Source of the DNA: Oscillospiraceae bacterium
Lineage (GTDB): Bacteria > Bacillota > Clostridia > UMGS1883
Direction: 5' to 3'
Assembly (NCBI GenBank): GCA_022508735.1
Contig: JAFLUQ010000002.1
Span: forward strand, 2,045-34,044
DNA: 32,000 nucleotides
The notes beneath the pieces are model-generated. The model was not told where the DNA came from. It was given only the letters and a program-made list of their open reading frames with translations, and searched no databases. A program made the translations under genes and the position numbers. Of the stretch, positions 3,883-25,982 are shown in pieces (the first letter of the stretch is position 1; every line of letters starts with the position of its first letter).

Positions 3883-4380
3883 TTAATAATACTTCTTACA
3901 ATCCTTCAAATCCGTGACGGTGCGAAGCGCTTCACCAAATCTCTGGAAATGCACGACCTCTCTCTCGCGAAGGAACCGGATGGCATCTATAACGTCCGGG
4001 TCGTCGGCAAGGCGGAGGATATTGTCGTAGGTAGCTCTGGCCTTCTGTTCGGCAGCCATGTCCTCGGTCAGGTCGGCAATTACGTCGCCCATAGACTGAA
4101 TTGTGGCGGCGCTCCATGGAACGCCTGCCGCATTGACGGGATAGACGCCTGTGCCGTGATCAACATAGTAGTCGGCAAAGCCGCCCTTCTTGATCTCCTC
4201 TTCAGAGAGTCCCTTTGTGAGCTGATGCACGATGGTGCCGACCATTTCAAGGTGGCCCAGCTCCTCGGTGCCTATATCGTTCAGTATGCTCTTTGTGACC
4301 TCAGTGGGCATGGCAAAGCGCTGGCTGAGATAGCGCAGGCTTGCGCCAAGCTCGCCATTTGGGCCTCCGTACGGCAACTG
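3883..4380 (-). CDS. cotJC: CotJC-like manganese-catalase-family spore coat protein, 5'-truncated (3' portion of a gene split by prophage insertion)
   Basis: The translation (Q)LPYGGPNGELGASLRYLSQRF...DIGTEELGHLEMVGT...AAGVPW...IADLTEDMAAEQKARATY...DDPDVIDAIRFLREREVVHFQRF is collinear with CotJC/Mn-catalase motifs. It begins at the equivalent of about residue 27 of full-length CotJC (after ...LIEQ). An in-frame TAG sits at 4381-4383 directly upstream, and only a TTG at 4375-4377 is available as a start. Confidence 0.8.
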   Translation of the reverse strand, partial: QLPYGGPNGELGASLRYLSQRFAMPTEVTKSILNDIGTEELGHLEMVGTIVHQLTKGLSEEEIKKGGFADYYVDHGTGVYPVNAAGVPWSAATIQSMGDVIADLTEDMAAEQKARATYDNILRLADDPDVIDAIRFLREREVVHFQRFGEALRTVTDLKDCKKYY

Positions 4381-4395
4381 CTAAATAGGTGGTTA
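4375..4395. other. Prophage/host junction (attL or attR) inside cotJC
   Basis: cotJC homology ends at about 4380. The recombinase stop codon (complement TTA) is at 4393-4395, so the crossover must lie in this ~15-20 bp interval. Confidence 0.6.
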
Positions 4396-5853
4396 AATAA
4401 AAAGATTTACCGCGATTTCATCACGTTTTTTAACTATGTTTGAGACAACTGTGCGGACGGCGGTGTTCTTTTCAACGTTACTTTTATCCGGATCCTTTAC
4501 GATGGAAAGGACATCGGCAATCTTCAGGCGTAGTTCAGCGTCACGGTCCTCAAGGTTGGGGCTTGGAGCGGGCTTAATCTGTTCCTTTATGCTTTCAATC
4601 TCGGCGGTCAGTTTGGCCTTGTTGGTGCTGTACTCCTCAAGAGTATCTATACCGGCTTCATATGCCTCACGGACACGGCGCAGGCGTTGCTCAGCGTTAT
4701 ACAGCATTGCAGCGTACATATCTGCATCGGACTTTTCGGGTAATTCTGTTTTTTTATATGCCACTGATACGCCATCGGTCGCACCGTTAGAGAAGTTTTC
4801 AAGTGCGGAAATAACATATTGACTGATTTTTTTGGCATTTATGCTTCCATTACCGGGACATGTGCCCTTGTTTTTATTATTGCAGTAATAATTCCCCGCG
4901 CAGTTCACAACTATACCGCCACACTCGTCGCAGTGAATCAGCCCAACGAGCCAGTGACTTATGCTGTCTCGTGGTTTTATATACTTGCGGTACTGGATCT
5001 TTATTGCCTTAAGCTTCTCCTGAGCCTGATCCCACAGTTCGACGCCTATAAGCGGCTCATGGGTACCGTCCACGATCATGCTGTCAGGATTGCTGTAGTT
5101 ACGTGAAGTCGACCCAGTGGGCGTCCAACGTATTTTCCCGATATACACAGGATTATTGAGCCAGTATTCCACGGTTCGGTTCTCTATTTTGCTTCCTCGG
5201 TGGGTGCGCACACCCAAAGCGTTCAACTCTTTGGCTATACCGACCATGCCTTTACCGCCGACAAACTTTTCAAAGGCCGCGCGGACGACGGCAGCTTCCT
5301 CCGGCACGATCTCAAGCTGCTTGTTTTTCATTGTATACCCGAAAGGGGGAATAGAGAGCGGTTCTCCACGGCGGGCCTTTTCGGTCATGCCGCGCTTGAC
5401 CTCTTCGGCAAGGTTTATGCTATAGTATTCGTCCATGGCCTCGATAAGGGCCTCTATCAGTATGGACATCTTATCATCGCCCAAAGACTCGCTGACGGAT
5501 AGCACCTCAATTCCAAGCTGTTTACGGAGCATAGATTTATATACAATGCTATCCTCACGGTTACGTGCGAAGCGGCTGAACTTCCATAATATGATGGCGT
5601 CAAAGGGCTTGGGCTTACTTTTTGCGAGACCTATCATCTGCATGAATGCCGGCCGCTTCTCAGCCTTGCGGCCGGAGATACCTTCGTCCATAAATATGTA
5701 GTCGCCGGGAATAACAAAGTTGTTCCGTTTGGCGTAGTCGCGTATCACTTTGAGCTGGCTTTCGGGGCTATATTCAACCTGATCATCGGTGGACACGCGG
5801 ATATAAGCCGCTGCGATACGCACAGAGGATCCTCCACTTGAATTTTTAGGCAT
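4393..5853 (-). CDS. Large serine recombinase (phage integrase)
   Basis: N-terminal resolvase catalytic domain (AAYIRVSTDDQ...SPESQ...FSRFARN), a recombinase domain, a Cys-rich zinc ribbon (CDECGG...CAGNYYCNNKNKGTCPG) and a C-terminal coiled coil. ATG at 5853 lies 10 nt after AAAGGAG. The upstream GTG at 5862 in the ORF track is too close to the SD. Confidence 0.92.
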   Translation of the reverse strand: MPKNSSGGSSVRIAAAYIRVSTDDQVEYSPESQLKVIRDYAKRNNFVIPGDYIFMDEGISGRKAEKRPAFMQMIGLAKSKPKPFDAIILWKFSRFARNREDSIVYKSMLRKQLGIEVLSVSESLGDDKMSILIEALIEAMDEYYSINLAEEVKRGMTEKARRGEPLSIPPFGYTMKNKQLEIVPEEAAVVRAAFEKFVGGKGMVGIAKELNALGVRTHRGSKIENRTVEYWLNNPVYIGKIRWTPTGSTSRNYSNPDSMIVDGTHEPLIGVELWDQAQEKLKAIKIQYRKYIKPRDSISHWLVGLIHCDECGGIVVNCAGNYYCNNKNKGTCPGNGSINAKKISQYVISALENFSNGATDGVSVAYKKTELPEKSDADMYAAMLYNAEQRLRRVREAYEAGIDTLEEYSTNKAKLTAEIESIKEQIKPAPSPNLEDRDAELRLKIADVLSIVKDPDKSNVEKNTAVRTVVSNIVKKRDEIAVNLFI

Positions 5854-5882: not shown

Positions 5883-5912
5883 TTGACAATTGGGGAGTGT
5901 ATGTGATACAAT
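5883..5912 (+). promoter_or_regulatory. Near-consensus sigma-A-type promoter pointing away from the recombinase gene
   Basis: TTGACA (5883-5888), 18-nt spacer, TGa-TACAAT (5904-5912, extended -10). Confidence 0.55.
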
Positions 5913-6019: not shown

Positions 6020-6976
6020 TTAGTTGTTTCTACACATATGCAGAGAATACGAGCCACCCTTCTTCTCCCGAGATATAATATTTTCTTTTTCTAATTCTCT
6101 TAATAGTTTCTGAATATCTGATTTTAATTGAGGGTGAAAATATGAATATATATTTTTTTGTAAAATTCCATCGTTACCATCGATAGTTTTCACTAAATCA
6201 TTTTTTAATGTTCTCTTTTGACGATACAATTCAACATAACTTTCATAATTATTCGTCAAATCATTTTTCAGTTTTTCAACATCATCTATATAGCTACGAG
6301 GCGTACTGTTACTGCTATCACTGAACATCCACATATCCTCAAAATAAAAGGTTCCGCCTTTAGTTCCGCTGCAAAATTTCCTGAATCTGTAAAAGACATC
6401 TATAGCTTTATCGCATAACCGTATATGCTCATCTACATCAAAACCAGGATATGCGACAGCTTCTGAAGATAAATTATAAATGTTGTTCTCATATATCGAA
6501 ATTTTTTCGGAATTTCGCTGACTGAACTGAAAACTTAATTCTCCGTCTCTATAAGAGCGGTGAGGCGTAGACGAATGTTCTTCAATAGCTTTTCGTTTGC
6601 CTAATTCTATTAAATATGGGACTTCTTCGTCAGAAATGGGTTTGCCATCGGCCCGAAAAATTATATTTTTGCCGTGTATGTATATGTCAGAGAAAGTGTC
6701 TTTTTCTGTTTCTTCTACTGTATCAGTGTCATTTGATGTAATATCATTTTTTTCTTCAGAAATAAGTTTATTTTTCCTCAATAACAAATATGATGGCACT
6801 CCAAATAGAGAGCATACAAAAATGAGTATAAGTCCAGAGAGTATTATTTCTGATAAAGAAGCGTTGAAGGAAATAAGCCTATTGATCGTGCCAATGCTTA
6901 AGAAAATTCCCACAACACACATAATCAGAAAACATATGCCTATTATAGTTCGTATTATTTTTATTGTTTTTTTCAT
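6020..6976 (-). CDS. Orphan membrane protein: two N-terminal TM helices, acidic linker, ~230-aa soluble region ending in a winged-helix-like segment
   Basis: 318-aa ORF, visibly much more AT-rich than flanking phage DNA. TM segments IIRTIIGICFLIMCVVGIFLSI and IILSGLILIFVCSLFGVPSYLLL. C-terminus ...LQKNIYSYFHPQLKSDIQKLLRELEKENIISREKKGGSYSLH resembles a wHTH. It starts 14 nt downstream of the preceding repressor gene, so it is probably in the same operon. Confidence 0.75.
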   Translation of the reverse strand: MKKTIKIIRTIIGICFLIMCVVGIFLSIGTINRLISFNASLSEIILSGLILIFVCSLFGVPSYLLLRKNKLISEEKNDITSNDTDTVEETEKDTFSDIYIHGKNIIFRADGKPISDEEVPYLIELGKRKAIEEHSSTPHRSYRDGELSFQFSQRNSEKISIYENNIYNLSSEAVAYPGFDVDEHIRLCDKAIDVFYRFRKFCSGTKGGTFYFEDMWMFSDSSNSTPRSYIDDVEKLKNDLTNNYESYVELYRQKRTLKNDLVKTIDGNDGILQKNIYSYFHPQLKSDIQKLLRELEKENIISREKKGGSYSLHMCRNN

Positions 6977-6990: not shown

Positions 6991-7641
6991 TTATACAACG
7001 TCACTCTGGAAGGCTACAGCCTTACCGAGGATATGAATATGGTCAAGCTGCTCGTCCCTATATACAAGCGGGGGATATTTGGTGTTTTCTGCCACAAGAG
7101 TCAACTGTTGCTGTTCCTTATCGTAGTATACACGCTTCAACGTGGCTACGTCATCAATTACGACAGCGGCAATTTCGCCATCAACTACTATAGGTTGTTG
7201 GCGTATAAAAGCTATATCACCGTCCATGATTCTTGCATTTATCATGCTGTCACCCTTGGCTCTTAGGCAAAAGTCCGCTCGGATATCCGCGCCAGCTTCA
7301 ACATAGCTTTCCCTGTCCTCATTGGTAAATATAGGTTCTCCACAGGCAATTTCCCCGAGAAGAGGAAATTTTTTTGTTTCTATAGGAAAGATATTGTCAT
7401 ATTTGAATACAGAAGTTTCGCTTTTGGTAGACTTGGGATTTTGCTCGTCACTTCGACCAGTAAGGTAATCTAAAGATACATTAAACAAATCTGCTAACAT
7501 TTGCTGCTTCTGATAATCCGGTTTTGCATGGCCGCGCTCCCATTGACTGATAGTGCTGGAATCTACAAATAGTTTCTTTGCAATATCTTTCTGCTGAAGA
7601 TTATTAGCTTTACGAAGAGTCTTTAATCTTTCTGCAAACAT
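6991..7641 (-). CDS. XRE-family HTH + S24 peptidase (LexA/CI-like) repressor, copy 2
   Basis: HTH LQQKDIAKKLFVDSSTISQWERG. S24 Ser/Lys motifs are AKGDSM and ATLKRV, with a possible UmuD-type Cys-Gly cleavage site (IACGEP). ATG at 7641 follows AAAGAGGTG; the track start at 7674 lacks an SD. Confidence 0.88.
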   Translation of the reverse strand: MFAERLKTLRKANNLQQKDIAKKLFVDSSTISQWERGHAKPDYQKQQMLADLFNVSLDYLTGRSDEQNPKSTKSETSVFKYDNIFPIETKKFPLLGEIACGEPIFTNEDRESYVEAGADIRADFCLRAKGDSMINARIMDGDIAFIRQQPIVVDGEIAAVVIDDVATLKRVYYDKEQQQLTLVAENTKYPPLVYRDEQLDHIHILGKAVAFQSDVV

Positions 7642-7726
7642 ATGTATCACCTCTTTGTGTTGAAAATAATTCATCTAAAATATAAGTTGTCATTCGTGTA
7701 TACTCCTCTCCAAATATGCTTTGTAC

Positions 7727-8362
7727 TTACACCCGGCCTCTTACTTCGACAACCTTGCCGAGAATAATGACGGGCAACGTTTCTATATCCTTCGGGGTAT
7801 AGAAGGTAGGCTCATAAGAACAACTACTATTTAAAGGCACAAGCATTATGCCTGTGTCTTTTTTTAATACTTTTTTTACTGTGGCAAAATCACCATTTAC
7901 CAAAACGACGGCGATCTCTCCATTTTCTATATAATCTTGTTTACGCACAATTACAGTATCCCCGTTAAACATTCGAGGTTCCATGCTGTCGCCTTTGATT
8001 TTCAAAGCGAAGAACTCGCCTGTAGCGGCCATTTTAGTGGAAATTTCCTCGTAGTCGATTATATTTTCTTCAGCATAGATGGGATATCCGGCGCGAACAA
8101 TGCCAAGAACGGGAATTTTTACACCTTTTAATTGACTATAGGGGAGAGATGGCGTGCCGCTTTCTAATCGAACATCACTACGCCCCAATATGTAATCAAT
8201 TGATGCATTCAGCAATTCTGAGAGTCGGATAAGGCTCTCATTATCAGCTTCATATTTGCCAGTTTCCCAACCTGAAAGTGTTGCCTGTGTAACACCGAGC
8301 AGCGATGACAACTCTACCTGCGTTAATTTTAATTCTTTTCGTAGCTCTTTAATACGATTCAT
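7727..8362 (-). CDS. XRE-family HTH + S24 peptidase (CI/LexA-like) prophage repressor, copy 1
   Basis: HTH LTQVELSSLLGVTQATLSGWETG. Ala-Gly site (VRAGYP), IKGDSM and ATVKKV. It is divergent from a cro-like gene across a promoter/operator region. Confidence 0.9.
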   Translation of the reverse strand: MNRIKELRKELKLTQVELSSLLGVTQATLSGWETGKYEADNESLIRLSELLNASIDYILGRSDVRLESGTPSLPYSQLKGVKIPVLGIVRAGYPIYAEENIIDYEEISTKMAATGEFFALKIKGDSMEPRMFNGDTVIVRKQDYIENGEIAVVLVNGDFATVKKVLKKDTGIMLVPLNSSCSYEPTFYTPKDIETLPVIILGKVVEVRGRV

Positions 8363-8548: not shown

Positions 8549-8737
8549 ATGACAGGAATAGAGAGAATTAGAAAGAAACAAAACATGACGCAGATCGAGT
8601 TGGCCAAACATATGGGAGTTACGCAGGCCAATGTGTCACAGTGGGAAAGCAATGTGGCGAAGCCCAGAGCAGAAAACCTCATAAAAATGTCCGTGCTTTT
8701 TGGCTGCACGATCGATGAGCTGCTGAAGGACGCGTAG
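8549..8737 (+). CDS. Cro-like XRE-family HTH protein
   Basis: 62 aa with MTQIELAKHMGVTQANVSQWES. SD GAGGTGA lies upstream. It is divergent from the repressor. Confidence 0.88.
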   Translation: MTGIERIRKKQNMTQIELAKHMGVTQANVSQWESNVAKPRAENLIKMSVLFGCTIDELLKDA

Positions 8738-8754
8738 GGGGGAGGTGAATGGAA

Positions 8755-8991
8755 ATGGATAAGGTACAAACAACAATCCGCCTGCCGTTTGATCTGAAAG
8801 ACAGATTACAACAGGAGGCGGACAGGCTTGAGACCGACGAAAGCGAGATTATAATTATGGCTCTAAGAAAATTGCTTTCCGATAAAGAAAATCAATGTTT
8901 ATCTTACGTAAAATTGGCAGGGCATTCTTTGAAGCCGAATAAAAACCGCGGCTATGGAACAAAAGAAGTTAGTCAAGGAAATCTTCAATAA
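8755..8991 (+). CDS. Ribbon-helix-helix (CopG/Arc-like) protein
   Basis: TIRLPFDLKDRLQQEADRL...SEIIIMALRKLL fits a beta-strand plus two helices. GGAGGTG lies 7 nt before the ATG at 8755. The C-terminal tail overlaps the convergent gene by 23 nt. Confidence 0.6.
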   Translation: MDKVQTTIRLPFDLKDRLQQEADRLETDESEIIIMALRKLLSDKENQCLSYVKLAGHSLKPNKNRGYGTKEVSQGNLQ

Positions 8992-9481
8992 ATTTTTTTC
9001 TTTCAAGGCAATCTATTTCTCGAAGTATATCTACATTGAATATGTCTTCCAACTTTAAATTCGTATATATACGATTTAATATGGTCAAGACTTTAAGACT
9101 GACCTCATATTCGCTGCGAATACCCCAAAAGAAGTGAGCTAATTCCTCTATCATGCTTGAGCAGACAATTTCAGGATGATTGATATTCCATTTATAAAAT
9201 GGGTAGACAATTATTGGAGTAACAATAGCCAATTCATTGGGTTCGAGTGTTATTGAAATTGTATCTTTATCTGTAAAAATACAAGTTACAAATAAGAGAT
9301 GATCCGTATCAACGAGAAGACCGTCGTTTTCCATCTGATCAGCAACTGCATTTACGCAGCAAGAGAAAAGATTCGCTATTTCGGCGGGAATATCACATGT
9401 GGCTACAACGAGTACATGGGCTTTCAAGCGAGGGTCAATAGATGGGACTACAATATCTTTTTTCGCTTCTATTAATGCCAT
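8969..9481 (-). CDS. Orphan hypothetical protein (170 aa), antisense to the early lytic operon
   Basis: ATG at 9481 lies 7 nt after GGAGGAA. The gene has its own consensus promoter and is AT-rich. I recognise no family motif. Confidence 0.7.
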   Translation of the reverse strand: MALIEAKKDIVVPSIDPRLKAHVLVVATCDIPAEIANLFSCCVNAVADQMENDGLLVDTDHLLFVTCIFTDKDTISITLEPNELAIVTPIIVYPFYKWNINHPEIVCSSMIEELAHFFWGIRSEYEVSLKVLTILNRIYTNLKLEDIFNVDILREIDCLERKKFIEDFLD

Positions 9482-9515
9482 GTGTTCATTCCTCCAATTT
9501 TTTACAATTTGATTC

Positions 9516-9544
9516 ATTATATCACAATATCTCTAAAAAGTCAA
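9516..9544 (-). promoter_or_regulatory. Consensus promoter for the antisense orphan gene
   Basis: Minus strand reads TTGACT, 17-nt spacer with TGa, TATAAT (plus-strand AGTCAA 9539-9544 and ATTATA 9516-9521). Confidence 0.65.
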
Positions 9545-9556
9545 CAGGAGGCAGTT

Positions 9557-9757
9557 ATGGGATTCATTAAAGCATCAATAAAGCGTAATGGAGATGCAAA
9601 ATTTAGAATGTTTGCGAGGCCTGAAGAAGCTTTGGCCCTTTTGGTCTGCATATTTGAGAACATCGTGCAGAAGTTGATCGAATGTAAGGGCATGAGTAAC
9701 ACAGAGGCAAGGAAGTTCTTAATGGAAATATTGAACGAGCAATTGACAGATAGGTAA
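9557..9757 (+). CDS. Small early hypothetical protein (66 aa)
   Basis: AGGAGG lies 6 nt before the ATG at 9557. The longer track ORF (9482) lacks an SD. Confidence 0.6.
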   Translation: MGFIKASIKRNGDAKFRMFARPEEALALLVCIFENIVQKLIECKGMSNTEARKFLMEILNEQLTDR

Positions 9758-9804
9758 TAGGACAAATCAAGCGCTAAATAAACTAAATGGAAGGAGGTTT
9801 TATC

Positions 9805-10023
9805 ATGGGAAAAACGTCGAACAAGGAATATAAAGTGACCTGCACACTCACAGATCGATCCACAGGGATAACAAAAAACGTGGACGATCTGACTGAGGCA
9901 GAGCGCCGTAAAGCGGCCGTCATTATGGGTATGCGAATGCTAAAGCAGCATTATGGACCGAACTGTGTTATTACGCTGACAGATCCCGGAGCGGAGGAAC
10001 GCTATGGGATAAGGTCAATGTGA
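9805..10023 (+). CDS. Small early hypothetical protein (72 aa)
   Basis: GGAGG lies 8 nt before the ATG at 9805. Confidence 0.6.
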   Translation: MGKTSNKEYKVTCTLTDRSTGITKNVDDLTEAERRKAAVIMGMRMLKQHYGPNCVITLTDPGAEERYGIRSM

Positions 10024-10083
10024 GGCGGTTTCGTCCGCCTTCTATAGCGGACAAGCCCGGACTAATCGAAAGAAGGTGATGTT

Positions 10084-10407
10084 ATGTTTAAATCATGCGA
10101 TTACTGCGGTGCACATCTTGACCCCGGGGAACATTGCGACTGCCGGGACGACATCAAACAGAAGGAAGGTGAACAAATGAACGCAATGAGAGAGCTGGAT
10201 CTTGAGGAAATCAAAAACAGGCTCGAGGACATAAGGGGCGAGCTTGAGCAGATCGCCGCAAATGAGAGGTTTGCTATTGGATATAGTATGGGGGATCCAG
10301 TGTCCGAGGAGCAGTACGAAGAGGCAGAGCAGGCAGTCTGTAACGTAGCCGACGCGGCTTCACGAATTGAAGAGGCAATAGAATTTGTACAGGAGGCGCT
10401 CAAATGA
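10084..10407 (+). CDS. Small early protein with N-terminal CxxC...CxC knuckle and an acidic coiled coil
   Basis: CDYCGAHLDPGEHCDC, then a Glu-rich helical segment. SD GAAGGTGA lies upstream. Confidence 0.65.
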   Translation: MFKSCDYCGAHLDPGEHCDCRDDIKQKEGEQMNAMRELDLEEIKNRLEDIRGELEQIAANERFAIGYSMGDPVSEEQYEEAEQAVCNVADAASRIEEAIEFVQEALK

Positions 10408-10580
10408 GACATAAAATCAAAAAAACCGCCCATACGGCGGCTACAGCGGTAATCATGCTGGTGTTGATGTTAGCGGCAAGCTGCTCTGACATATCCGTAC
10501 CGGTCAGCCCGTGGGCGTTACTCATGGTATGCTTCGCCGCCGGCATAGGGCTGTTGGTATTCGTTAAAACCGACTGTTAG
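10404..10580 (+). CDS. Small two-TM membrane protein (58 aa), not in the supplied ORF track
   Basis: ATGA overlap with the preceding stop. Translation: MRHKIKKTAHTAATAVIMLVLMLAASCSDISVPVSPWALLMVCFAAGIGLLVFVKTDC. Confidence 0.5.
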   Translation: MRHKIKKTAHTAATAVIMLVLMLAASCSDISVPVSPWALLMVCFAAGIGLLVFVKTDC

Positions 10581-10676
10581 GGGGCGAGGTTGTGGGCTGG
10601 CTATGTTTTGCTCTGCCGGCGTTTTGCGTGATAGTTGCGCTGTTGCTGCTCAGAGCAGGAAGGTGAAAAGAAAAAT

Positions 10677-10706
10677 GCTCCCGGGAGGGTGGAGCCTCCG
10701 GGGAGC
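10677..10706 (+). terminator. GC-rich hairpin, possible transcription boundary of the first early gene block
   Basis: GCTCCCGGGAGG, loop gtggag, CCTCCGGGGAGC (11 of 12 bases pair). No clean U-tract. Confidence 0.3.
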
Positions 10707-10790
10707 GGTAGAAAATCTTTCCGAAAAATTTTCTATTGATTATTATAACACATTCAAAAGTAAAAGTCAAGATTTTTAAGGTAAAACATC

Positions 10791-10970
10791 ATGAAATATA
10801 AAAGTTTTGAGGACATGCCCACATGGGTATCCGTCCCGGAAGTGGCGCAGTTTATGAAGATAAGCGAGTCAGAGGTCTACGCCATGATAAGAAGAAAAAA
10901 CCTCACTGCAACAAAAATAGGCAACAGGCCGTATTCGGTAAACAAATACCGACTTATAGGAAAGGAGTAA
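10791..10970 (+). CDS. Excisionase/MerR-type HTH DNA-binding protein (59 aa), not in the ORF track
   Basis: VSVPEVAQFMKISESEVYAMIRRKNLTATKIGNRPYSV matches the HTH_17/Xis-type pattern (L..Ev A..l.vS..tvY.li+.g.lpa.kiG.r). Confidence 0.65.
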   Translation: MKYKSFEDMPTWVSVPEVAQFMKISESEVYAMIRRKNLTATKIGNRPYSVNKYRLIGKE

Positions 10971-10975
10971 AAACA

Positions 10976-11920
10976 ATGATTAAACAACCCAACGAACTTA
11001 CATTTAACGATAAGAAATTTTCAATGATCCTTTATGGAGCCCCCGGCGTCGGCAAGACAACCCTTGCCTTATCCGCCCCCAACCCCATCCTTATTGACTT
11101 CGACCGCGGCGTATCCCGTGTGAAGGCATACCACAGAACGTTGACCATTGTATGCAGCACATATGAGGAGGTGCTGAGCGACATTGAAGCTCCAGAGATC
11201 AAAGACTGTGAAACAATCGTCATAGACACCGGCGGCAGCTTTGTCAGTTTCCTTCAGGCGTGGGCAATGAGGATCAATCCAGCTGTAAATCGTCAAAAGG
11301 ACGGGAAAACAATTTCTCAAAAGGGCTTCGGGGCGGTAAAACAGGAGTTTCAACGTTTCACGAACTATGTCCGAGATACACTGGACAAGAATGTTATCTA
11401 TGTTTTCCACTCTGACGAGCAAAAGGATAAGGACGGTAATCCTCAGTACCGGATTCTGTGCGAGGGCGCGGCAAAAAATATTGTATGGCAGCCGTGCGAC
11501 TTCGGGGGATACGTACAAATGGTCGGCAACAACCGTGTTGTGACGTTTTCGCCAACACAGGAATTCTTTGCCAAGGGCTGTTATGGCATCGAGGGGCAGA
11601 TGGTCGTTTCCACGATCGGCCCAACCGACAAGAATAATTTTATTACCAACCTCTTTGCGATGGCACGAGAGAATATCGCCAAGGACGCTGAAGCGTTTGT
11701 ACCTCTGAAGGAGCAATACGATAAGACCATGGCCGAGGCTACGGCCACCATTGATGCAATCGAAACGGCAGAGGACGCAACTCACGCAATCTTCGTCCTT
11801 TCGCAGCTTGAACACGCGCTGACGTCAAAGAGGGAGGCAAGCGCCATGTTGAAAGCCAAGGCGGATGAGCTTGGTTTTGTCTTGGATAAAGAAAAAATGA
11901 TGTACAGGGAGGCGGAGTGA
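10976..11920 (+). CDS. Sak4-like RecA-fold ATPase (AAA_24 family, phage recombination protein)
   Basis: Walker A ILYGAPGVGKTT and Walker B IVIDTGG. ATG at 10976 follows AAAGGAG. The 51-codon N-terminal extension in the track overlaps the Xis-like ORF and is rejected. Confidence 0.85.
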   Translation: MIKQPNELTFNDKKFSMILYGAPGVGKTTLALSAPNPILIDFDRGVSRVKAYHRTLTIVCSTYEEVLSDIEAPEIKDCETIVIDTGGSFVSFLQAWAMRINPAVNRQKDGKTISQKGFGAVKQEFQRFTNYVRDTLDKNVIYVFHSDEQKDKDGNPQYRILCEGAAKNIVWQPCDFGGYVQMVGNNRVVTFSPTQEFFAKGCYGIEGQMVVSTIGPTDKNNFITNLFAMARENIAKDAEAFVPLKEQYDKTMAEATATIDAIETAEDATHAIFVLSQLEHALTSKREASAMLKAKADELGFVLDKEKMMYREAE

Positions 11921-11921
11921 C

Positions 11922-12536
11922 ATGAGCTATCTGATCACGCAAACGCTGATTGGCTCGTGGAACTATATGCATTCGTGTCGTGAAGAATGCCAGAAAGATG
12001 CCTACAATGACTTTCTTCGGACACTCAACCGAATTCCCCAAGAGACCACCCCGGCAATGCAAAACGGTATTGATTTTGAAAATGAGGTGTATAAAGCGGC
12101 TGCGGGTATATCCCGCACCGCTCACCCTAAATGGGAAAGTGGAATAAATGCCGTTGCGGCGATCATAAAAGGCGCTCCCGTACAGGTAAAGGCACAGCGC
12201 GAATTGACTATCGGCTCAATGGATTTGCTTGTGTACGGCATTATGGATGCGATTAAAGCGGGCAAAATTTACGACGTGAAATTCAGCAACAAAAGCTTCA
12301 GCTCCGTTGATCTTGCCGGTAAGTATCTCGATTCTCCACAGCACCCAACTTACTTCTATCTCGAACCTGAGGCGCAGGAGTTTCAGTATCTGGTTTCTGA
12401 CGGCGTTGACCTGTATACGGAAGTATATACACGGGGGAACAGCAGGCCGTTTAAGGAAATCGCGGAAGAATTCCTCTCATCGCTTGATGCTATGAATTTA
12501 CTCGACGCCTATAAAGAAAATTGGGAGGCAAGATGA
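11922..12536 (+). CDS. PD-(D/E)xK (Cas4/RecB-like) nuclease
   Basis: GIMDAIKAGKIYDVKFS fits D...D/ExK. The gene follows Sak4 directly, which is the usual recombination-module partner. Confidence 0.55.
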   Translation: MSYLITQTLIGSWNYMHSCREECQKDAYNDFLRTLNRIPQETTPAMQNGIDFENEVYKAAAGISRTAHPKWESGINAVAAIIKGAPVQVKAQRELTIGSMDLLVYGIMDAIKAGKIYDVKFSNKSFSSVDLAGKYLDSPQHPTYFYLEPEAQEFQYLVSDGVDLYTEVYTRGNSRPFKEIAEEFLSSLDAMNLLDAYKENWEAR

Positions 12537-12967
12537 GTATGGAATATTTATTCCGCGGGCGGACTAATACCATAGTCGATGAATGGATTTATGGGGAACA
12601 CTATACGTTTAAGACCAACGCCTTTATTAGTCCGTCAGGTGCGCCGTGTTCCCTTTCGGTATACCCCTCCAGCGTCGGCCTATGGTCGGGATTGACTACC
12701 ACTGGTAAAGATCCCGTGAAGGTGTTTGAGGGGGATATAATAGCCACATTGGATACTAATGGCGTTGTCGTCAGGTCCGGCATAGTGAGGCTTGGTCGGT
12801 ACAACAGTGACGGAGACCATCATATGGGTTTTTATGTAGAATGGGTGTCTGGTACGGCCAAATCTGCTACACGTAAAGACCTGATCTACTGGATCGAGTA
12901 TGCCGGTGCTCAGGTGATCGGCAATACAACGGATAATCCTGAATTGGTGGGGGTGACAGAAAAATGA
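12533..12967 (+). CDS. YopX-family phage protein
   Basis: YLFRGRT...EWIYG...FEGDII...IGNTTDNPELV is the characteristic YopX C-terminal motif. Confidence 0.75.
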   Translation: MSMEYLFRGRTNTIVDEWIYGEHYTFKTNAFISPSGAPCSLSVYPSSVGLWSGLTTTGKDPVKVFEGDIIATLDTNGVVVRSGIVRLGRYNSDGDHHMGFYVEWVSGTAKSATRKDLIYWIEYAGAQVIGNTTDNPELVGVTEK

Positions 12968-13632
12968 CACGAGAAGAAGCACTGGCTGTAGCAAAACCTA
13001 TATTGTTCAACACCGAAATGGTACAGGCTATACAGGACAATAGGAAGAGCGTGACGCGACGGATAATCAAGCCTCAGCCGACCACCGAAACTCCTATGTA
13101 TTGCTACGCCGCAGGAAGAAATAAAGATATAGGCAAATGGGTTGATAAAGCGGGACATCAGTGGGCGCCCCCCTGCAGAGCTGGCGATATCCAATATGTT
13201 CGAGAAACGTGGTTTTACGAGTATCATATGCACGACTTAACCGAGGGAAAACCCGATTTGCCGTCCGGGCGGTATTTGCACCGTTTCGTATTCAAAGCAC
13301 AGGATCCAAACTATTCTGTTGACCTTGGAGCTATGGCCAGCGGCTGGCGACCGTCTATTCATATGCCAAAAGAAGCCGCTCGGATATTCCTACGGGTGAC
13401 AGAAGTGCGAGTGGAGCGGTTGCAGGATATGCGTCTTGTTGACTGTTTGGCTGAGGGCGTACTCCTTTCCTCGATTGAGAAAATGGATTTTATAAAAGGC
13501 CCTCTTATAGCGAGAGAAAGATATGCAGGGGTATGGGACAGCACCATTCCCAAGAAAGAACTTGCACGTTACGGCTGGGGCGCAAATCCGTGGGTGTGGG
13601 TAATTGAATTTGAGCGGATGGAGGTGCAGTGA
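12964..13632 (+). CDS. ASCH/PUA-like domain phage protein
   Basis: N-terminal PILFNTEMVQAIQDNRKSVTRRIIKPQP is typical of phage ASCH-like proteins. ATGA overlap with the preceding gene. Confidence 0.5.
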   Translation: MTREEALAVAKPILFNTEMVQAIQDNRKSVTRRIIKPQPTTETPMYCYAAGRNKDIGKWVDKAGHQWAPPCRAGDIQYVRETWFYEYHMHDLTEGKPDLPSGRYLHRFVFKAQDPNYSVDLGAMASGWRPSIHMPKEAARIFLRVTEVRVERLQDMRLVDCLAEGVLLSSIEKMDFIKGPLIARERYAGVWDSTIPKKELARYGWGANPWVWVIEFERMEVQ

Positions 13633-14078
13633 TGAACAGACTGACAGAATACCGCCTCAACACGGTACATATAGACAGTCGCCACACTATAAGCCTTGCT
13701 GCTGGCATGTACATAGGCGAACCCATAGACCGTCTTGCCGACTACGAGGACAGCGCCCTTGAGCCGCAAGAAGTACAGCGGCTGGCGAAAGCAAAAGCCG
13801 AGGGGCGGCTTGTGGAGTTGCCTTGCGAGGTTGGCAACATGATCTATGTCATTGGGAGCGAGATTGAGCGGAAAGGCAGAAGGAAAGTTACGGTTGACCG
13901 CATTGCAGAATATCAGGTGGCTCATATCCTCCTTGGAAATCAAGTATGTCTGGTTTATTATAATGAATCGGGTTTACCTGTTGTTGTAACCCCTGACGAA
14001 ATAGGTCATGCGGTATATTTCACCCGTGAGGAAGCGGAGAAAGCATTGAAGGAGGACGACAATGGACGTAGCGAGTAG
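13629..14078 (+). CDS. Hypothetical phage protein
   Basis: Translationally coupled (ATGA overlap). The codon usage looks like that of its neighbours. Confidence 0.65.
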   Translation: MMNRLTEYRLNTVHIDSRHTISLAAGMYIGEPIDRLADYEDSALEPQEVQRLAKAKAEGRLVELPCEVGNMIYVIGSEIERKGRRKVTVDRIAEYQVAHILLGNQVCLVYYNESGLPVVVTPDEIGHAVYFTREEAEKALKEDDNGRSE

Positions 14079-14277
14079 CGCCGAGCTTTTCGGCAAGGTT
14101 GTTGTGGTGACGGGAATGAAGGAAATTCCGATGTGCTGTGATGAATGTGCAATTTGTACGGAAACTTTTGGCGGCGAGTGGTGTGATTGGCTTAAGACTG
14201 GCCAGCCAATATCGCAGATTGTAGACATCCGTCAAAAACGACTGCCCGACTGTCCGCTCCGGCTGGTGGGGAGGTAG
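14062..14277 (+). CDS. Small Cys-rich hypothetical protein
   Basis: 71 aa containing CCDECAIC...C...C. It sits in the same-strand operon. Confidence 0.5.
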   Translation: MDVASSAELFGKVVVVTGMKEIPMCCDECAICTETFGGEWCDWLKTGQPISQIVDIRQKRLPDCPLRLVGR

Positions 14278-14285
14278 GGTATATT

Positions 14286-16277
14286 ATGACACTTGGAAGT
14301 TTATTTGACGGAATTGGAGGCTTTCCCTTAGCCGCCACGATATCGGGGATAATGCCCGTGTGGGCATCAGAAATCGAGCCGTTTTGTATAGCGGTCACTA
14401 AAAAGCACTTTCCCAACATGGTACATTTAGGGGATATCACGAAAATAGACGGACGTAAGATCCCGCCCGTGGACATAATCACCTTCGGCTCTCCGTGTCA
14501 GAATATGTCCGTGGCAGGGGATAGAACGGGACTGGAAGGAGACCAAAGCCGACTGTTTTATGAGGCTATACGAATTATATACGAAATGAGGGAAGCGACA
14601 AATGGAGCAGCTCCAACTTACATTGTATGGGAGAACGTCCCAGGAGCCTTTTCCAGTAATGGAGGAAGAGACTTTCAGGCCGTGCTCTCGGAAGTCACAA
14701 AGGCCAATATTCCAATGCCTCGAAGTGGACGGTGGGCAAACGCCGGAGTGGTTCGAGGGGGGGCAATTACTTTCGCATGGCGGCTCCTCGACGCTCAATA
14801 TTGGGGAGTCCCCCAGCGTCGCAAGAGAATCTACGCTGTCGGAAGTTTTGGAAGCCGAAGTGCCGAAGAAATATTATTTAAGCCCGAAAGCGTGTCAGGG
14901 GATTATTCGCCGTGCGGAGAGGCGGGGCAAGGCCCTGCCGCCGCTACTGATGGAAGCGCTGAACAACATGATACAGCTCGGCGAAGCACAGTAGTATTTG
15001 ACGGTAGTCAAATAACATGTCCTACAAATAAAAGCAATCCTAATATTAACGCACAAGTACATACGCTATCAAAAACTAATGCAAATAGCGCTATCCTTTG
15101 TATTATCAACGATCGAGGCGGCGAGAGCATAACAGTTGAAAAAGATAGTATATCTCCCACGCTGAGAGCCCAGTCTCATGGGAATTTGCCTGTAGTGTGT
15201 GTTCGGGAACGATGCGGCTGTGAGGGAGGCGGAAAAGGGTGCTTAGTGCAAGAGAATATAACTGGAACGCTTGCTACGAATAACGACCAATTTGTTGTTT
15301 GTGCAGCGGGATTTTGCCCCGAGCAGTCAGCGAAAACTCGCGGAATTGGTTATGAAGAAGAAAAAAGTCCCACACTTAGGACTGGAGTTGTCCCAGGATG
15401 CATATATGCCATAGACCGTGCCGCCTTTAATCAGGGCACAAATGCACAGTGCGATTTTGAAATATCGGACAAAGGCATTGCTTCTACGCTTGTGGTTAAA
15501 GGCCCTTCGGAGGTGGCGTATGGGATTAGTTCTGACAACAGTAACGCCATGAAATCACCAAACCCGCACAGCGGCATTTATGAAGCAAAAACCGCCAGGA
15601 CACTGGATTGCAACGGCGGAAATCCATGCTGTAATCAAGGAGGAGTTGTAATAGTACAGCCTGCTTACGCCATTGGAAACGGACAGTCCAATCAAACGGG
15701 AACAGAGTTGTCTGATCGATCCGGAACATTGAACTGTATGCACGATCAACAGGAGGTTATATATCCTACTGAAACAAAATTTTGGGAAGCATATCAACAT
15801 CATGGCTATAGGCAAAGCGAAAGTGCAGGAACTTTAACAATGGGACAAAATGACCATGTGCGTGGAGATACGCCGATAATAACACAAAGCTATGGAGCGA
15901 ACTGCCGTAACGACACCTTGAACGAAGAATTATACCCGACATTGCAGGCAAAAGAAAGTGGCGGACAGTCTCTAAATTACAGTGGTGTATTACTTCAAAA
16001 AATATGGTGCTGGATAGCCCGTCGCCTTATTCCGCTGGAATGTGGCCGGTTGCAGGGGTATCCTGACCATTGGACCGACATAGGGCCGTGGACTGACGAT
16101 AAAGGCAAGTTACATAAAGAAAGCTCAGACACATCGCAGTATCGGGCGTACGGCAACAGTATTGCCGTACCATGCGGTTTGAGAGTTATCGGTGCTATTG
16201 CGGAATATGAGAGGAGTAAAAAACCATGCTTAACCACGTTACATTACAGGGCCGCATTACCCGCGACCCGGAATTAA
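14286..16277 (+). CDS. DNA (cytosine-5)-methyltransferase with an exceptionally long variable region (putatively multispecific)
   Basis: Motif I LFDGIGG, IV GSPCQ, VI ENVPG, VIII QRRKRIY, then IX/X (ECGRLQGYPDHW, YGNSIAVP). About 390 aa lie between motifs VIII and IX. Confidence 0.93.
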   Translation: MTLGSLFDGIGGFPLAATISGIMPVWASEIEPFCIAVTKKHFPNMVHLGDITKIDGRKIPPVDIITFGSPCQNMSVAGDRTGLEGDQSRLFYEAIRIIYEMREATNGAAPTYIVWENVPGAFSSNGGRDFQAVLSEVTKANIPMPRSGRWANAGVVRGGAITFAWRLLDAQYWGVPQRRKRIYAVGSFGSRSAEEILFKPESVSGDYSPCGEAGQGPAAATDGSAEQHDTARRSTVVFDGSQITCPTNKSNPNINAQVHTLSKTNANSAILCIINDRGGESITVEKDSISPTLRAQSHGNLPVVCVRERCGCEGGGKGCLVQENITGTLATNNDQFVVCAAGFCPEQSAKTRGIGYEEEKSPTLRTGVVPGCIYAIDRAAFNQGTNAQCDFEISDKGIASTLVVKGPSEVAYGISSDNSNAMKSPNPHSGIYEAKTARTLDCNGGNPCCNQGGVVIVQPAYAIGNGQSNQTGTELSDRSGTLNCMHDQQEVIYPTETKFWEAYQHHGYRQSESAGTLTMGQNDHVRGDTPIITQSYGANCRNDTLNEELYPTLQAKESGGQSLNYSGVLLQKIWCWIARRLIPLECGRLQGYPDHWTDIGPWTDDKGKLHKESSDTSQYRAYGNSIAVPCGLRVIGAIAEYERSKKPCLTTLHYRAALPATRN

Positions 16278-16648
16278 AAACAACTACGAGCAGCGTAAGC
16301 ACCTGCAGCTTCACGCTGGCGGTGGACAGGAGTTATAAAAGCGGCGAGCAGAAGGCCGATTTCATCAACTGTGTCGCATGGAGAAGCTCAGCAGAGTTTA
16401 TAACGAGATATTTCAAGAAGGGCGATATGTTCCTCGTTGAGGGCAGTATCCAGACACGCAGTTGGGAGAAGGACAGCAAAAGGTATTACGCAACTGAGGT
16501 CTTAGTGGACAGAGTACACTTCTGCGGCCGGCAGGAAACGCAGCCTACTTTGGGAGCTCCGGCTACTGAAGAAGCACCGGCTGCGGCATACGGCGGACTC
16601 GGTGAGCCGATAGTGTTGACCGGCTCGGAAGATGATTTGCCGTTTTAA
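16226..16648 (+). CDS. ssb: Single-stranded DNA-binding protein
   Basis: OB-fold signature LQGRITRDPELK...ADFINCVAWR...FLVEGSIQTRSWE and an acidic C-terminal tip DDLPF. GAGGAG SD. The gene overlaps the methyltransferase 3' end by 52 nt. Confidence 0.92.
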   Translation: MLNHVTLQGRITRDPELKTTTSSVSTCSFTLAVDRSYKSGEQKADFINCVAWRSSAEFITRYFKKGDMFLVEGSIQTRSWEKDSKRYYATEVLVDRVHFCGRQETQPTLGAPATEEAPAAAYGGLGEPIVLTGSEDDLPF

Positions 16649-16688
16649 GATGTTCGGAAATTCCGAACAAGTTGGGGAGTGGTAAAAA

Positions 16689-17501
16689 TTGAATGCTGTA
16701 ATCAAATATCCCGGATCAAAATGGTCTATCGCAAAATGGATCATAGACTTCTTTCCTCAGCACCACAGCTACTTGGAGCCCTTCTTCGGATCCGGCGCTG
16801 TGCTTTTCACCAAGAAGCGGAGCGCCATAGAGACGGTGAACGATCTTGACGGTGATGTTGTTAACTTTTTTGACTGGATAAAGAAGGATACCGAAAAACT
16901 GGCAAGAGCCATCTACTGGATACCCTATTCGCGAGAGGTATATGACAGAGCGTGCGAGGCACGGCACATGGAAACGGACAGTTTTCAGAGAGCCTGTGAT
17001 TTTTGCGTAAGAATGATGCAGGGTCACGGCTTCCGCACTAACGGAGGGAAGGTCGGATGGAAGAACGATGTACAAGGGCGAGAAGCTGCCTATGCTGCCA
17101 TTGGTTGGTGCAAAATGCCGGAAGTGATACTTGAAACTGCAGAACGGCTGCGAGGCGTGCAGATAGAGAACCGCCCGGCCGTGGAAGTTATATCACGCTT
17201 CAACTATGCAAATGTTCTGATTTACGCTGACCCACCGTATCTGCTCAGCACCCGGCACGGAAAACAGTATAAATGCGAAATGACCGATGCCGACCACGAA
17301 GAATTGCTTGAGGCATTGAAAGTGCATAGAGGGCCGGTGCTCCTCTCGGGATATGACAGTGACCTATATAACACTACTTTGCGTGGCTGGTACCGGAAGG
17401 AGATATCAACTATGGCACAGACCGCCGCCAAACGCCGAGAGGTTCTGTGGATGAATTATGAGCCGCCATGCCAGCAATTAGAAATGGAGGACACTACATG
17501 A
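16689..17501 (+). CDS. N6-adenine DNA methyltransferase (D12/Dam class)
   Basis: KYPGSKW, EPFFGSGAV (FxGxG) and the catalytic DPPY motif (IYADPPYL). TTG start with GGGGAGTGG upstream. Confidence 0.88.
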   Translation: MNAVIKYPGSKWSIAKWIIDFFPQHHSYLEPFFGSGAVLFTKKRSAIETVNDLDGDVVNFFDWIKKDTEKLARAIYWIPYSREVYDRACEARHMETDSFQRACDFCVRMMQGHGFRTNGGKVGWKNDVQGREAAYAAIGWCKMPEVILETAERLRGVQIENRPAVEVISRFNYANVLIYADPPYLLSTRHGKQYKCEMTDADHEELLEALKVHRGPVLLSGYDSDLYNTTLRGWYRKEISTMAQTAAKRREVLWMNYEPPCQQLEMEDTT

Positions 17502-18199
17502 AACCTATATATAAGCCGCGAGGAGCGGCTAAGGAATACGGAGATCTTGCTATTAACATATACACAGGCTGCCCGCATAGGTGTTATTACTGCTTTGCGC
17601 CCAGCGTGAAGCGCCAGGATAGGGAAGAATTTCACAGCCACGTTGAACCCAGAGAGGGCATTGTTGAGGCCGTAGCCCGACAGCTGGAGCGTGAGAAGAT
17701 CACGGACAAGCTGATACACCTTTGTTTTACCTGTGACCCATACCCGACAGGATATGACAGCACAGCCACACGTGAGATCATAAAACTTTTGAAGGACAGC
17801 GGGAACCATGTACAGATACTCACAAAGGGCGATGGCAGCAGGGATTTTGATTTGCTTGACGAAAACGATTGGTATGGCATTACATATACAGGGGCCAAGC
17901 TTTCACAAGAGATCGGTGCTTACGACCCTAACTCTCGGCTATGTGACCTTGTAACCGCAAAACATCAAGGAATAAAAACATGGATATCTTTTGAACCGGT
18001 AATAAATGCCGCTGATGTACTTGATCTTATTTACGGCAGTGTTTACACATACGTTGACCTCGTAAAGATCGGCAAACTTAACTATCACCCCAGCAATATT
18101 AACTGGAAAGAGTTTGGCAACGAGGCGGAGGCGCTCTGCAAAGCTCGCAATCTGAACTACTACATAAAGGATTCGCTGCGGAAGGAAATGGAGGTTTAG
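17498..18199 (+). CDS. Radical SAM protein (SplB/COG1533-like Cx3Cx2C enzyme)
   Basis: INIYTGCPHRCYYCFAP carries the CxxxCxxC cluster motif. GGAGG lies 7 nt before the ATG. ATGA overlap with the preceding methyltransferase gene. Confidence 0.7.
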   Translation: MKPIYKPRGAAKEYGDLAINIYTGCPHRCYYCFAPSVKRQDREEFHSHVEPREGIVEAVARQLEREKITDKLIHLCFTCDPYPTGYDSTATREIIKLLKDSGNHVQILTKGDGSRDFDLLDENDWYGITYTGAKLSQEIGAYDPNSRLCDLVTAKHQGIKTWISFEPVINAADVLDLIYGSVYTYVDLVKIGKLNYHPSNINWKEFGNEAEALCKARNLNYYIKDSLRKEMEV

Positions 18200-18201
18200 A
18201 T

Positions 18202-18594
18202 ATGGCATCATTCAGAAAATGCCCTCGATGCAGTAAATTATTCGAGGGGCGAAAGAAGTATTGCCCGGAGTGCCGCTCGATAGTGGACAAGGAAATCCGA
18301 AAGCGCTACGCAGATGCTCACAAGGCCGAAGCAAGGGAATATATGCGGAATTACCAACAACTACGCAAAAAACCTGCCATATGTAAGGACTGCGGCAAGG
18401 AATTTAAGCGGACAGGACCGCGTCAGGAGTGTTGTACCGCCTGTTCTGCCAAACGAAGATCAAATAAGACTATCACGCATGAGCGTAAAGCTCCGTCGTC
18501 GCTTGCAGAGATAAACAGTATAGCCCGGTCACGCGGTAAGTCATACGGACAACAAGTGGCTGAAATGTTTGTGCAAGCAAATGTCTGCAAGTAA
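18202..18594 (+). CDS. Zinc-ribbon phage protein
   Basis: CPRC...CPEC and CKDC...CTAC pairs in a basic protein. Confidence 0.65.
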   Translation: MASFRKCPRCSKLFEGRKKYCPECRSIVDKEIRKRYADAHKAEAREYMRNYQQLRKKPAICKDCGKEFKRTGPRQECCTACSAKRRSNKTITHERKAPSSLAEINSIARSRGKSYGQQVAEMFVQANVCK

Positions 18595-18610
18595 CAGTCA
18601 AGTGAAAATT

Positions 18611-18634
18611 TCCCGTAAATATGCGGGATTTTTG
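18611..18634 (+). terminator. Intrinsic terminator inside the early/middle region
   Basis: TCCCG, loop taaatatg, CGGGA, followed by TTTTT. Confidence 0.5.
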
Positions 18635-18696
18635 AACACATGCGTATGTTTGCGTATGTTCGTGCAAGTAAAATATCTCCGGGGGGACGAGAGAAA

Positions 18697-18939
18697 ATGT
18701 TTGGCAAAAAAAAAACTGAAGAACAGAAAGATAATATGCGCTACGCTAATTGTTACCGGTGTGGATGGCGGGTACCGTTACATAATAATCCGGCGGGGTG
18801 CATCTTTGAGATTATGGACATGTTGGACATGGAGTCGTGCCGCGGGCGGTCTCGCTGTAAAATGTACGTTACGGACTCTCTTCTTAAAGTGCATTTGGAA
18901 TCACTTCTTCATTCAGATAGATCGGAGGAAGGAAAATGA
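18697..18939 (+). CDS. Small Cys-rich hypothetical protein (80 aa)
   Basis: ATG at 18697. ATGA coupling to the next gene at 18936. The alternative overlapping frame 18569-18958 lacks coupling. Confidence 0.5.
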   Translation: MFGKKKTEEQKDNMRYANCYRCGWRVPLHNNPAGCIFEIMDMLDMESCRGRSRCKMYVTDSLLKVHLESLLHSDRSEEGK

Positions 18940-19766
18940 AGGACACATTTATCTTTAAAGCAAGTTATACGGAATATTTCAGGCAACTGGACCTTTCTCT
19001 GCATGATATAGGATGGATCGTAACTGCTATGTCAAACTATACTACCACTGGTGAAGTTCCGACTATCGACGAGGCGGGGCCCATACTTTACAGCGCCTTT
19101 ATGCTCATCAAGGTTGATCTTGATAAAAACGCGAAAAAGTACGCCGAGACCTGCCAGAAACGCAGCGAGGCGGGCAGACAGGGCGGCAGATCGAGAAGGG
19201 ACTCCGAACTGCCCGAGGAAGGAAATCAAAATAAAGCAAAAGAAGCAAATGCTTTTTCTGAAAGCAATTGCCAGCAAACTAAGCAAACCGAGCAAAATAA
19301 CCCTGATAATGATAGTGGTAGTGATATTGTTATTGATAATGATATTGATATTGATATTGTTATTGATAATGCAGCAGCAGTCGCTAACGCTCCTGCTGCT
19401 ATGCCCGCGACCGCTCAGGAAGACCCCGTCCGAAAGCTTTACGAAGAGCTTATTGGGCCGTGGAACTCCCATGTTCAGAAAACGCTGTCATCCTTCGGGG
19501 CCCCGCCGGAGCTTATTTGCTATGCCATAACCGAGGCGAGCAACAACAACGTGCTCAAGCTCAGTTACATAGCTAAAATTCTTGAGGCAAAGAAAGCCTC
19601 AGGAATAACGGACGCCAAGTCGGCAAGGGCGAGGCCTCAGAAAAACAGCCCTTCACCTCAGAAAAAAGGCCTCGACCCTCAGGCAGTGATTGAAATGCAG
19701 ATGCGGCTTAACAAAGGGGGAAGCAAACATGAAGATAGTTGTCAACGCTATACCGCCAAGCAATAA
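18936..19766 (+). CDS. DnaD-like replisome organiser/replication initiation protein
   Basis: The C-terminal domain KLYEELIGPW...ELICYAITEASNNNVLKLSYIAKILEAKKASGITD matches the DnaD/DnaB_2 pattern. A central acidic low-complexity linker is present. Confidence 0.7.
   Translation: MKDTFIFKASYTEYFRQLDLSLHDIGWIVTAMSNYTTTGEVPTIDEAGPILYSAFMLIKVDLDKNAKKYAETCQKRSEAGRQGGRSRRDSELPEEGNQNKAKEANAFSESNCQQTKQTEQNNPDNDSGSDIVIDNDIDIDIVIDNAAAVANAPAAMPATAQEDPVRKLYEELIGPWNSHVQKTLSSFGAPPELICYAITEASNNNVLKLSYIAKILEAKKASGITDAKSARARPQKNSPSPQKKGLDPQAVIEMQMRLNKGGSKHEDSCQRYTAKQ
19323..19371 (+). repeat. Iteron-like direct repeat inside the replisome-organiser gene
   Basis: GATATTGTTATTGATAATG occurs at 19323-19341 and again at 19353-19371 (30-bp period), with ATTGAT sub-repeats between. 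Confidence 0.7.
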
Positions 19767-20722: not shown

Positions 20723-20724
20723 CT

Positions 20725-21141: not shown

Positions 21142-21147
21142 ATTTCA

Positions 21148-21177
21148 TTGAATTTCATGTGTGACCTGTGCTATAAT
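21148..21177 (+). promoter_or_regulatory. Putative late promoter
   Basis: TTGAAT (21148-21153), 18-nt spacer, TGc-TATAAT (21169-21177). Confidence 0.55.
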
Positions 21178-21188
21178 GTAAGCTGTGA

Positions 21189-21226: not shown

Positions 21227-21243
21227 CGAAAGGAGGGTCACCC

Positions 21244-22933: not shown

Positions 22934-22947
22934 CAGGGGTGAAATAA

Positions 22948-25981: not shown

Positions 25982-25982
25982 T

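Follow-up and report, generated by a model that had tools for sequence, protein, structure and literature searches.

The 32,000-nucleotide (nt) stretch of contig JAFLUQ010000002.1 (GCA_022508735.1) analyzed here, hereafter the window, derives from an uncultured Oscillospiraceae bacterium and contains a truncated copy of the spore-coat gene cotJC, a large serine recombinase (LSR) gene beside it, and a prophage that continues beyond the right end of the window (Table 1). The truncated copy is a minus-strand open reading frame (ORF 3883-4377/4380) of 164-165 codons that matches profile positions 29-196 of Mn_catalase (Pfam PF05067, E=1.7e-45). The nearest full-length CotJC homologues have 190 amino acids (aa) and the N-terminus MW(I/M)YEKKL...SQYGGPNGE, with which the window copy aligns from Y29; by homology, it is without the first 28 residues, and the inferred crossover lies at codon 31. 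A preliminary description of the window had read this ORF as collinear with CotJC from about residue 27, preceded at once by an in-frame TAG at 4381-4383 and lying close to the stop codon of the LSR gene. The alignment and the sequence bear out this reading, with the TAG directly upstream of the fragment. The TAA of the LSR gene (4393-4395) is separated from the TAG by 9 nt, from the attP half-site by 5 nt, and from the inferred crossover by 27 nt. The fragment, deposited as MCH5186792.1, has zero frameshifts and zero internal stops, and the E/E..H/E/H metal-ligand columns are invariant in the CotJC alignment (A1).

The LSR, deposited in its ATG-start form as MCH5186793.1, contains the Pfam domains Resolvase (PF00239), Recombinase (PF07508), and Zn_ribbon_recom (PF13408) in this order, matches the PHROG 95 integrase (E=4e-105), and carries an RVST motif with the candidate catalytic serine. 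Its gene sits at the extreme end of the prophage and is followed by a lysogeny module, in which the product of the orphan gene 6020-6976 had no match in Pfam, PHROGs, or PADLOC.

Table 1. Coordinates of the features in the window, and the reconstructed attachment (att) sites
Feature	Position	Strand	Basis
cotJC 3′ fragment (Y29 to stop, 163 codons)	3883..4371	-	Pfam; alignment to 190-aa homologues
11-bp core TACGGAGGCCC, identical in attR (window) and attL (L245)	4361..4371	-	L245/L246 junction comparison
Inferred crossover dinucleotide GG	4364-4365	-	centre of reconstructed attP palindrome
Phage-derived half-site, attP left arm TATTTAGCAGTTGCCGTACGGA, holds TAG 4381-4383	4366..4387	-	L245 match
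attL on L245, ...AGCCAATACGGAGGCCCGAATGCCAACTGCTAAATA...
attR, reverse complement of window, ...TATTTAGCAGTTGCCGTACGGAGGCCCAAATGGCGAG...
Reconstructed attP, 46 bp, TATTTAGCAGTTGCCGTACGGAGGCCCGAATGCCAACTGCTAAATA
attB k-mer, AGCCAATACGGAGGCCCAAATGGCGAG
attP k-mer, GCAGTTGCCGTACGGAGGCCCGAATGCCAACTGC
LSR, 486 aa from ATG; alternative start GTG at 5862	4393..5853	-	Pfam, PHROG 95
CATACACT, matches sigmaE -10 consensus CATACAnT, ~40 nt upstream of LSR ATG	5896..5903	-	sequence; weak evidence
Orphan gene of lysogeny module, 318 aa, hydrophobic N-terminal stretches	6020..6976	-	no family match
Two LexA/CI-like repressor genes (HTH_3 + Peptidase_S24), 6991-7674 and 7727-8362	6991..8362	-	Pfam
Divergent Cro-like helix-turn-helix gene (8549-8737) and ribbon-helix-helix gene (8749-8991), early operon start	8549..8991	+	Pfam
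Prophage early and late genes, running off right window end	9000..32000	+	ORFs; Pfam of identical L007/L008 genes
Terminase	21148-22933	+
Portal, SPP1-type	22948-24408	+
MuF-like	24398-25981	+
Scaffold	26567-27196	+
Major capsid	27208-28323	+
Tail sheath (MCH5186832.1)	30271-31572	+

The missing part of the gene was found at the far end of the prophage. A query in which the N-terminal 31 residues of the nearest uninterrupted CotJC were duplicated recovered 654 short cotJC 5′ fragments from the protein collection, including a 36-aa stub, MWMYEKKLAYPVKIKNPDPRMAKVIISQYGGPNANC* (P0194; MCH5188301.1, 'Oscillospiraceae bacterium'), encoded on two contigs (L245/L246) from the same assemblies as the window, ERZ27293329 and ERZ27293326. 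The stub is directly preceded by cotJA (PF11007) and cotJB (PF12652), and the three proteins (MCH5188301-303) bear the same MAG name as those of the window, MAG standing for metagenome-assembled genome. The stub abuts phage DNA where the preliminary description had placed the missing cotJA-cotJB-5′cotJC part. Past the stub, L245 carries a 398-aa orphan gene and then phage late genes on the opposite strand (XkdX, a Peptidase_C39_2-like protein, and PHROG families), the strand on which the distal end of the late operon of the window should lie. The orphan itself (L245 8090-9286, MCH5188300.1; no match in Pfam, PHROGs, or PADLOC) lies ~300 bp past the stub, in the same direction as the cotJ operon. 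Read-through from the host sporulation promoter could transcribe it.

Comparison of the two junctions allowed the attachment sites to be reconstructed. The phage-side arms of attL and attR are mutually reverse-complementary, with the 13 outer bases perfect and 18/21 matching overall, and the reconstructed attP is a 46-bp imperfect palindrome of two 21-nt arms separated by 4 nt (AGGC), with GG at its exact centre. An imperfect-palindrome attP of ~40-50 bp around a non-palindromic central dinucleotide common to attP and attB is the architecture expected of a serine integrase. That their arms form one palindrome is strong evidence that attL and attR belong to one element. The GG centre coincides with codon positions 1 and 2 of the second Gly in the YGGP motif (codon 31, within the conserved Y-G-G-P-N-G-E), attB and attP have TACGGAGGCCC in common, and the same GG centre is found in two unrelated elements. 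When the host flanks were joined in silico, an intact CotJC of 190 aa resulted, close to the ~189 aa that had been anticipated; its identity to the CotJC P0122, encoded without interruption in a cotJA-cotJB-cotJC operon (L011), is 89.5%. The preliminary description had also proposed looking for an uninterrupted attB in related genomes, and the intact gene is present in cotJABC operons of close relatives. Against the intact L011 gene, the ratio of nonsynonymous to synonymous substitution rates (dN/dS) is ~0.03 for the 3′ fragment and ~0.04 for the 5′ fragment, both without stop or frameshift. Judging from sequence, the window fragment and the far-end stub are the two parts of CotJC, a member of the Mn-catalase family and the third gene product of cotJA-cotJB-cotJC, with a predicted catalase/coat function.

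The window proteins correspond by exact look-up to MCH5186792-832 of the MAG named 'Oscillospiraceae bacterium', and the window is carried on contigs of the ENA assemblies ERZ27293326 (48,355 bp) and ERZ27293329 (45,619 bp). Sister contigs continue with tail tube, tape measure, baseplate J, sheath initiator, and XkdX families; given these and the sheath, the earlier assignment to a myovirus-type prophage is correct. Since both ENA contigs stop inside tail/baseplate genes, the far end does not lie on the contig of the window. A second prophage from the same sample, which has a tyrosine integrase (L251, ERZ27293326 k141_1589240, 2978-5560), offers a scaffold: its tail-fibre/XkdX/lysis module is ~99% identical to the phage end of L245, and it has ~79% amino-acid identity to the last gene of L007. 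L251 was reached through P0328, which had been followed as a route to a bridging contig and was retained only for synteny. By this synteny the ends of the window and L245 contigs are placed side by side, giving an inferred prophage length of ~43 kb, and the near-identical module on L251 and the L245 phage end explains the assembly break. The shared module reflects exchange between co-resident phages and is the likely cause of such breaks. The element can be described as a temperate, intact-looking myovirus of ~43 kb, integrated in cotJC of the Oscillospiraceae bacterium.

Insertions in cotJC are found well beyond this genome. CotJC relatives are encoded on 163 IMG/VR contigs, and among the IMG/VR loci fetched, 66 distinct junctions show homology from the GGxGG position, compared with 3 intact N-termini. 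In 31/66 junctions, the cotJC fragment is immediately preceded on the same strand by an LSR gene, those listed being 32-51% identical to the window LSR, and other viral contigs encode matching 5′ stubs, which end at YGG(P). Both ends are carried by two IMG/VR contigs. From one of these (L180+L099), an intact 198-aa ORF is obtained on rejoining, and its attP is again a palindrome with the same GG at the centre; in the other (L192+L035), the contig end truncates the element, so that rejoining was not possible. Among the best 120 of the 654 short proteins, ~58 break at residues 31-36 and ~50 at NDIG/TEE (residues 62-66; the slash marks the break). This second hot spot (P0199, P0219-P0233, P0260-P0280, and others) adjoins the Glu/His metal-ligand motif, and the phage records MT837874.1 and MT838203.1 are tied to it, the former with an LSR gene ~165 nt upstream of the cotJC 3′ part on the same strand. 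In three other loci (L004 749-1264, L005 3014-3577, L143 5974-6543), the phage arm contributes an ATG in frame and with it a new N-terminus of 10-25 residues, and gene callers annotate such lysogens with near-full-length chimeric 'Mn catalases' of 171-190 aa.

A scan of genome_contigs with a guessed attL pattern gave mostly chance matches in high-GC genomes, together with the useful loci L230 and L243. In L230 (3480-5026; Clostridia MAG Lapin-020 bin117, CANQXJ010000015.1), the orientation is opposite, with the LSR gene converging on the 5′ stub and followed by an ORF that resembles nrdD by eye; the LSR is 63% identical to that of the window, and the core reads CC on the LSR sense strand, not GG. 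The same arrangement, with another relative of the window LSR, occurs in L026 (746-2290). Insertion in either orientation agrees with the rule that polarity is set by the central dinucleotide alone.

One Clostridia MAG (Lapin-001 bin64, CANPZO010000014.1; L193 8262-8655) encodes a 35-aa cotJC stub that breaks after YGGP, an arrangement also present on ~15 contigs from other samples. The stub is followed by a 59-aa phage-like ORF, 39% identical to window 9811-9963, and beyond it by host ammonium-transporter and glutamate-synthase genes; the locus looks like a decayed remnant from which the cotJC 3′ half was lost. It had been the first CotJB-based candidate for the far end of the window prophage and was rejected as belonging to a different organism, not to the genome of the window. 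In the host flank of the window, a gene for a 1,115-aa protein (43-3390, plus strand), with N-terminal repeats of BspA leucine-rich type by eye, is convergent with the cotJC fragment, and a protein with leucine-rich repeats (LRR_5) is also encoded near cotJ in L193.

The cultured Acetivibrio saccincola (GCA_002969215.1, NEMB01000003.1, ~700.9-704.9 kb; L247 10001-13960) contains a 3,360-bp element that splits cotJC at the same GG. It consists of an inverted gene for a 531-aa LSR, 25% identical to the window LSR, a 34-aa ORF just upstream of it that is called in the sister contigs L248-L250, and a 347-aa orphan with no match in Pfam, PHROGs, or PADLOC. Both gene halves are intact and join to a CotJC of 199 aa. 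The element recurs in many samples (123 collection blocks), which is the pattern expected of a maintained excision switch, and it is a gin/skin-like candidate.

Two readings would deny that a prophage splits cotJC in the window. The fragment might be a naturally short, intact CotJC isoform starting at TTG/QLPYGG that merely lies beside a prophage, given that TTG at 4375-4377 opens an ORF of 164 codons and that gene callers and GenBank annotate the protein. We regard this isoform as highly improbable: no Shine-Dalgarno sequence precedes the TTG, short forms elsewhere each have a different phage-derived N-terminus, homology to intact genes ends exactly at the att core, and the missing 28 residues sit behind cotJA-cotJB at the other junction; the far-end stub, the att comparison, and the rejoined ORF together refute it. 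The cotJC-LSR junction could alternatively be an assembly or binning chimera, as the source is a MAG and its contigs break inside the prophage. The truncated CotJC, the LSR, and phage genes occur, however, on independent contigs from two ENA assemblies and from Logan runs, the complementary junction was assembled twice as well, the palindromic attP arms are divided between both junctions, and dozens of analogous junctions exist elsewhere. An artefact of this kind has therefore next to no probability, and it was rejected on the independent assemblies of both junctions.

With a genuine split in hand, the question becomes what the insertion means for the host. The phage is integrated at the GG of codon 31 and thereby splits cotJC into two parts: the 36-aa stub, which remains with cotJA-cotJB at attL, and the 3′ part at attR, which is promoterless. 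Conservative attL × attR recombination would restore a perfect 190-aa ORF. By what is established for LSRs, the integrase alone would catalyse attP × attB recombination, excision would require a phage-encoded recombination directionality factor (RDF), and the non-palindromic GG would fix the orientation of insertion. By analogy with SPbeta/spsM, skin/sigK, vfbin, vrin, gin, and yin, the split would be silent during growth, because vegetative cells would not need cotJ, a mother-cell operon; excision in the terminally differentiated mother cell would rebuild cotJC, and the forespore would retain the prophage. The same excision reaction would also serve phage induction. In B. subtilis, cotJ is a sigmaE-controlled operon, according to the title of Henriques et al. 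1995 (listed in PMC5025042). We consider the chances about evenly balanced that the window element acts as such a developmental switch in cotJC, excised during sporulation.

The weightiest competitor is plain insertional inactivation, to which we would assign somewhat less than an even chance. The conserved GGPxGE-coding stretch would then be a harmless landing site, the prophage would excise only on induction, and lysogens would make CotJC-less spores or use a paralogue. In favour of this reading, the prophage looks fully lytic-competent, with LexA-like repressors. No RDF was recognised for the window prophage, and no convincing sporulation promoter was found, as upstream of the LSR gene no -35 matches the CATACACT box, and the enrichment of the -10 motif is weak (across 107 related upstream regions, 7 occurrences compared with ~1 expected from a background that was poorly matched). 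In C. difficile, insertional mutants of the CotJC-like genes cotCB and cotD showed less catalase activity and no significant coat defect (Permpoonpattana et al. 2013, in the passage quoted in PMC11222575), so that disruption of cotJC may simply be tolerated. Permanent loss does occur and is tolerated, since the L193 lineage retains only the 5′ stub beside a phage remnant. The lack of a recognised RDF and promoter, the C. difficile mutants, and the L193 lineage weigh against a developmental switch, as do the empty exact-pattern attP/attB scans of viral_contigs and metagenome_contigs, which yielded no excision product, a protein cluster without an intact cotJC allele from the species of the window, and the lack of sequence overlap between the L245 and window contigs, whose link comes from synteny with the second prophage. 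On the other side, inactivation does not readily account for the 3.4-kb non-phage element of A. saccincola retaining both gene halves intact, or for both cotJC halves of the window element being free of stops and frameshifts. Moreover, indirect evidence for excision in the mother cell comes from the published cases considered: skin and yin (PMC10747680), gin (PMC5595907), SPbeta (PMC4191935), and the sigK insertion of B. cereus biovar anthracis (PMC10745906) were found to excise during sporulation or in a growth-phase-dependent manner.

If the developmental switch is generalized, few sites in Clostridia might be used as heavily as cotJC by serine-recombinase elements that excise during development, with two hot spots (YGG/P and NDIG/TEE), both orientations, and sizes from 3.4-kb recombinase-only cassettes to 43-kb phages. 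The window phage, like SPbeta, may tie excision to the development of the mother cell, and the spore coat would then show no sign of lysogeny. We offer this wider proposal tentatively, as a possible and on balance rather doubtful extension of the case at hand.

Prophages that split sporulation genes are the textbook instance of 'active lysogeny', and the tested examples known to us stem from Bacillus and from a small number of species of Clostridium and Clostridioides. With the present case, the pattern reaches uncultured Oscillospiraceae of the gut and the gene of a spore-coat enzyme, and our results suggest that the cotJC site is used by LSRs with as little as 25% identity. The natural attB/attP pairs with a common GG core may interest integrase engineers, the A. 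saccincola mini-element provides a tractable model for asking whether excision is developmental, and many metagenome gene calls of a 'short manganese catalase' are explained as halves of a split gene. A preprint (bioRxiv 10.1101/2021.11.22.469490) cites a survey (Abe et al. 2013, Mol Microbiol 90:415) in naming cotJC among the sporulation genes hit by phage or transposon insertions; our literature search turned up neither experimental work on a split cotJC nor an account of cotJC insertions as broad as those seen here.

Among described elements, the phi027 prophage of C. difficile R20291 is likewise of myovirus type, and its attR abuts cotG (CDR20291_1465, a CotJC-like Mn catalase; PMC12122855, PMC11222575), although the published description places it next to cotG and not within the gene. 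The elements skin (sigK; SpoIVCA, or CD1231/CD1234 in C. difficile), vfbin (spoVFB), vrin (spoVR), gin (gerE), and yin (yabG) resemble the window element in having an LSR beside the att site and in restoring a sporulation gene on excision; they are mostly defective or minimal, and their excision, at sporulation or in a growth-phase-dependent manner, has been demonstrated experimentally, whereas here a full prophage is involved. In structure, the mini-element of A. saccincola is closer to gin and skin than the window prophage is. SPbeta in spsM of B. subtilis, with its SprA integrase and SprB RDF (PMC4191935, PMC5499854), is likewise an active-looking, complete prophage that splits a mother-cell spore-surface gene, with a serine integrase at the prophage end, precise excision that rebuilds the ORF, and one recombination unit that would serve both lysis and development. 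SPbeta is a 134-kb siphovirus of Bacillus, whereas the window element is a ~43-kb myovirus that targets cotJC in an uncultured Oscillospiraceae; with these differences, it is a new example of the known elements that split sporulation genes.

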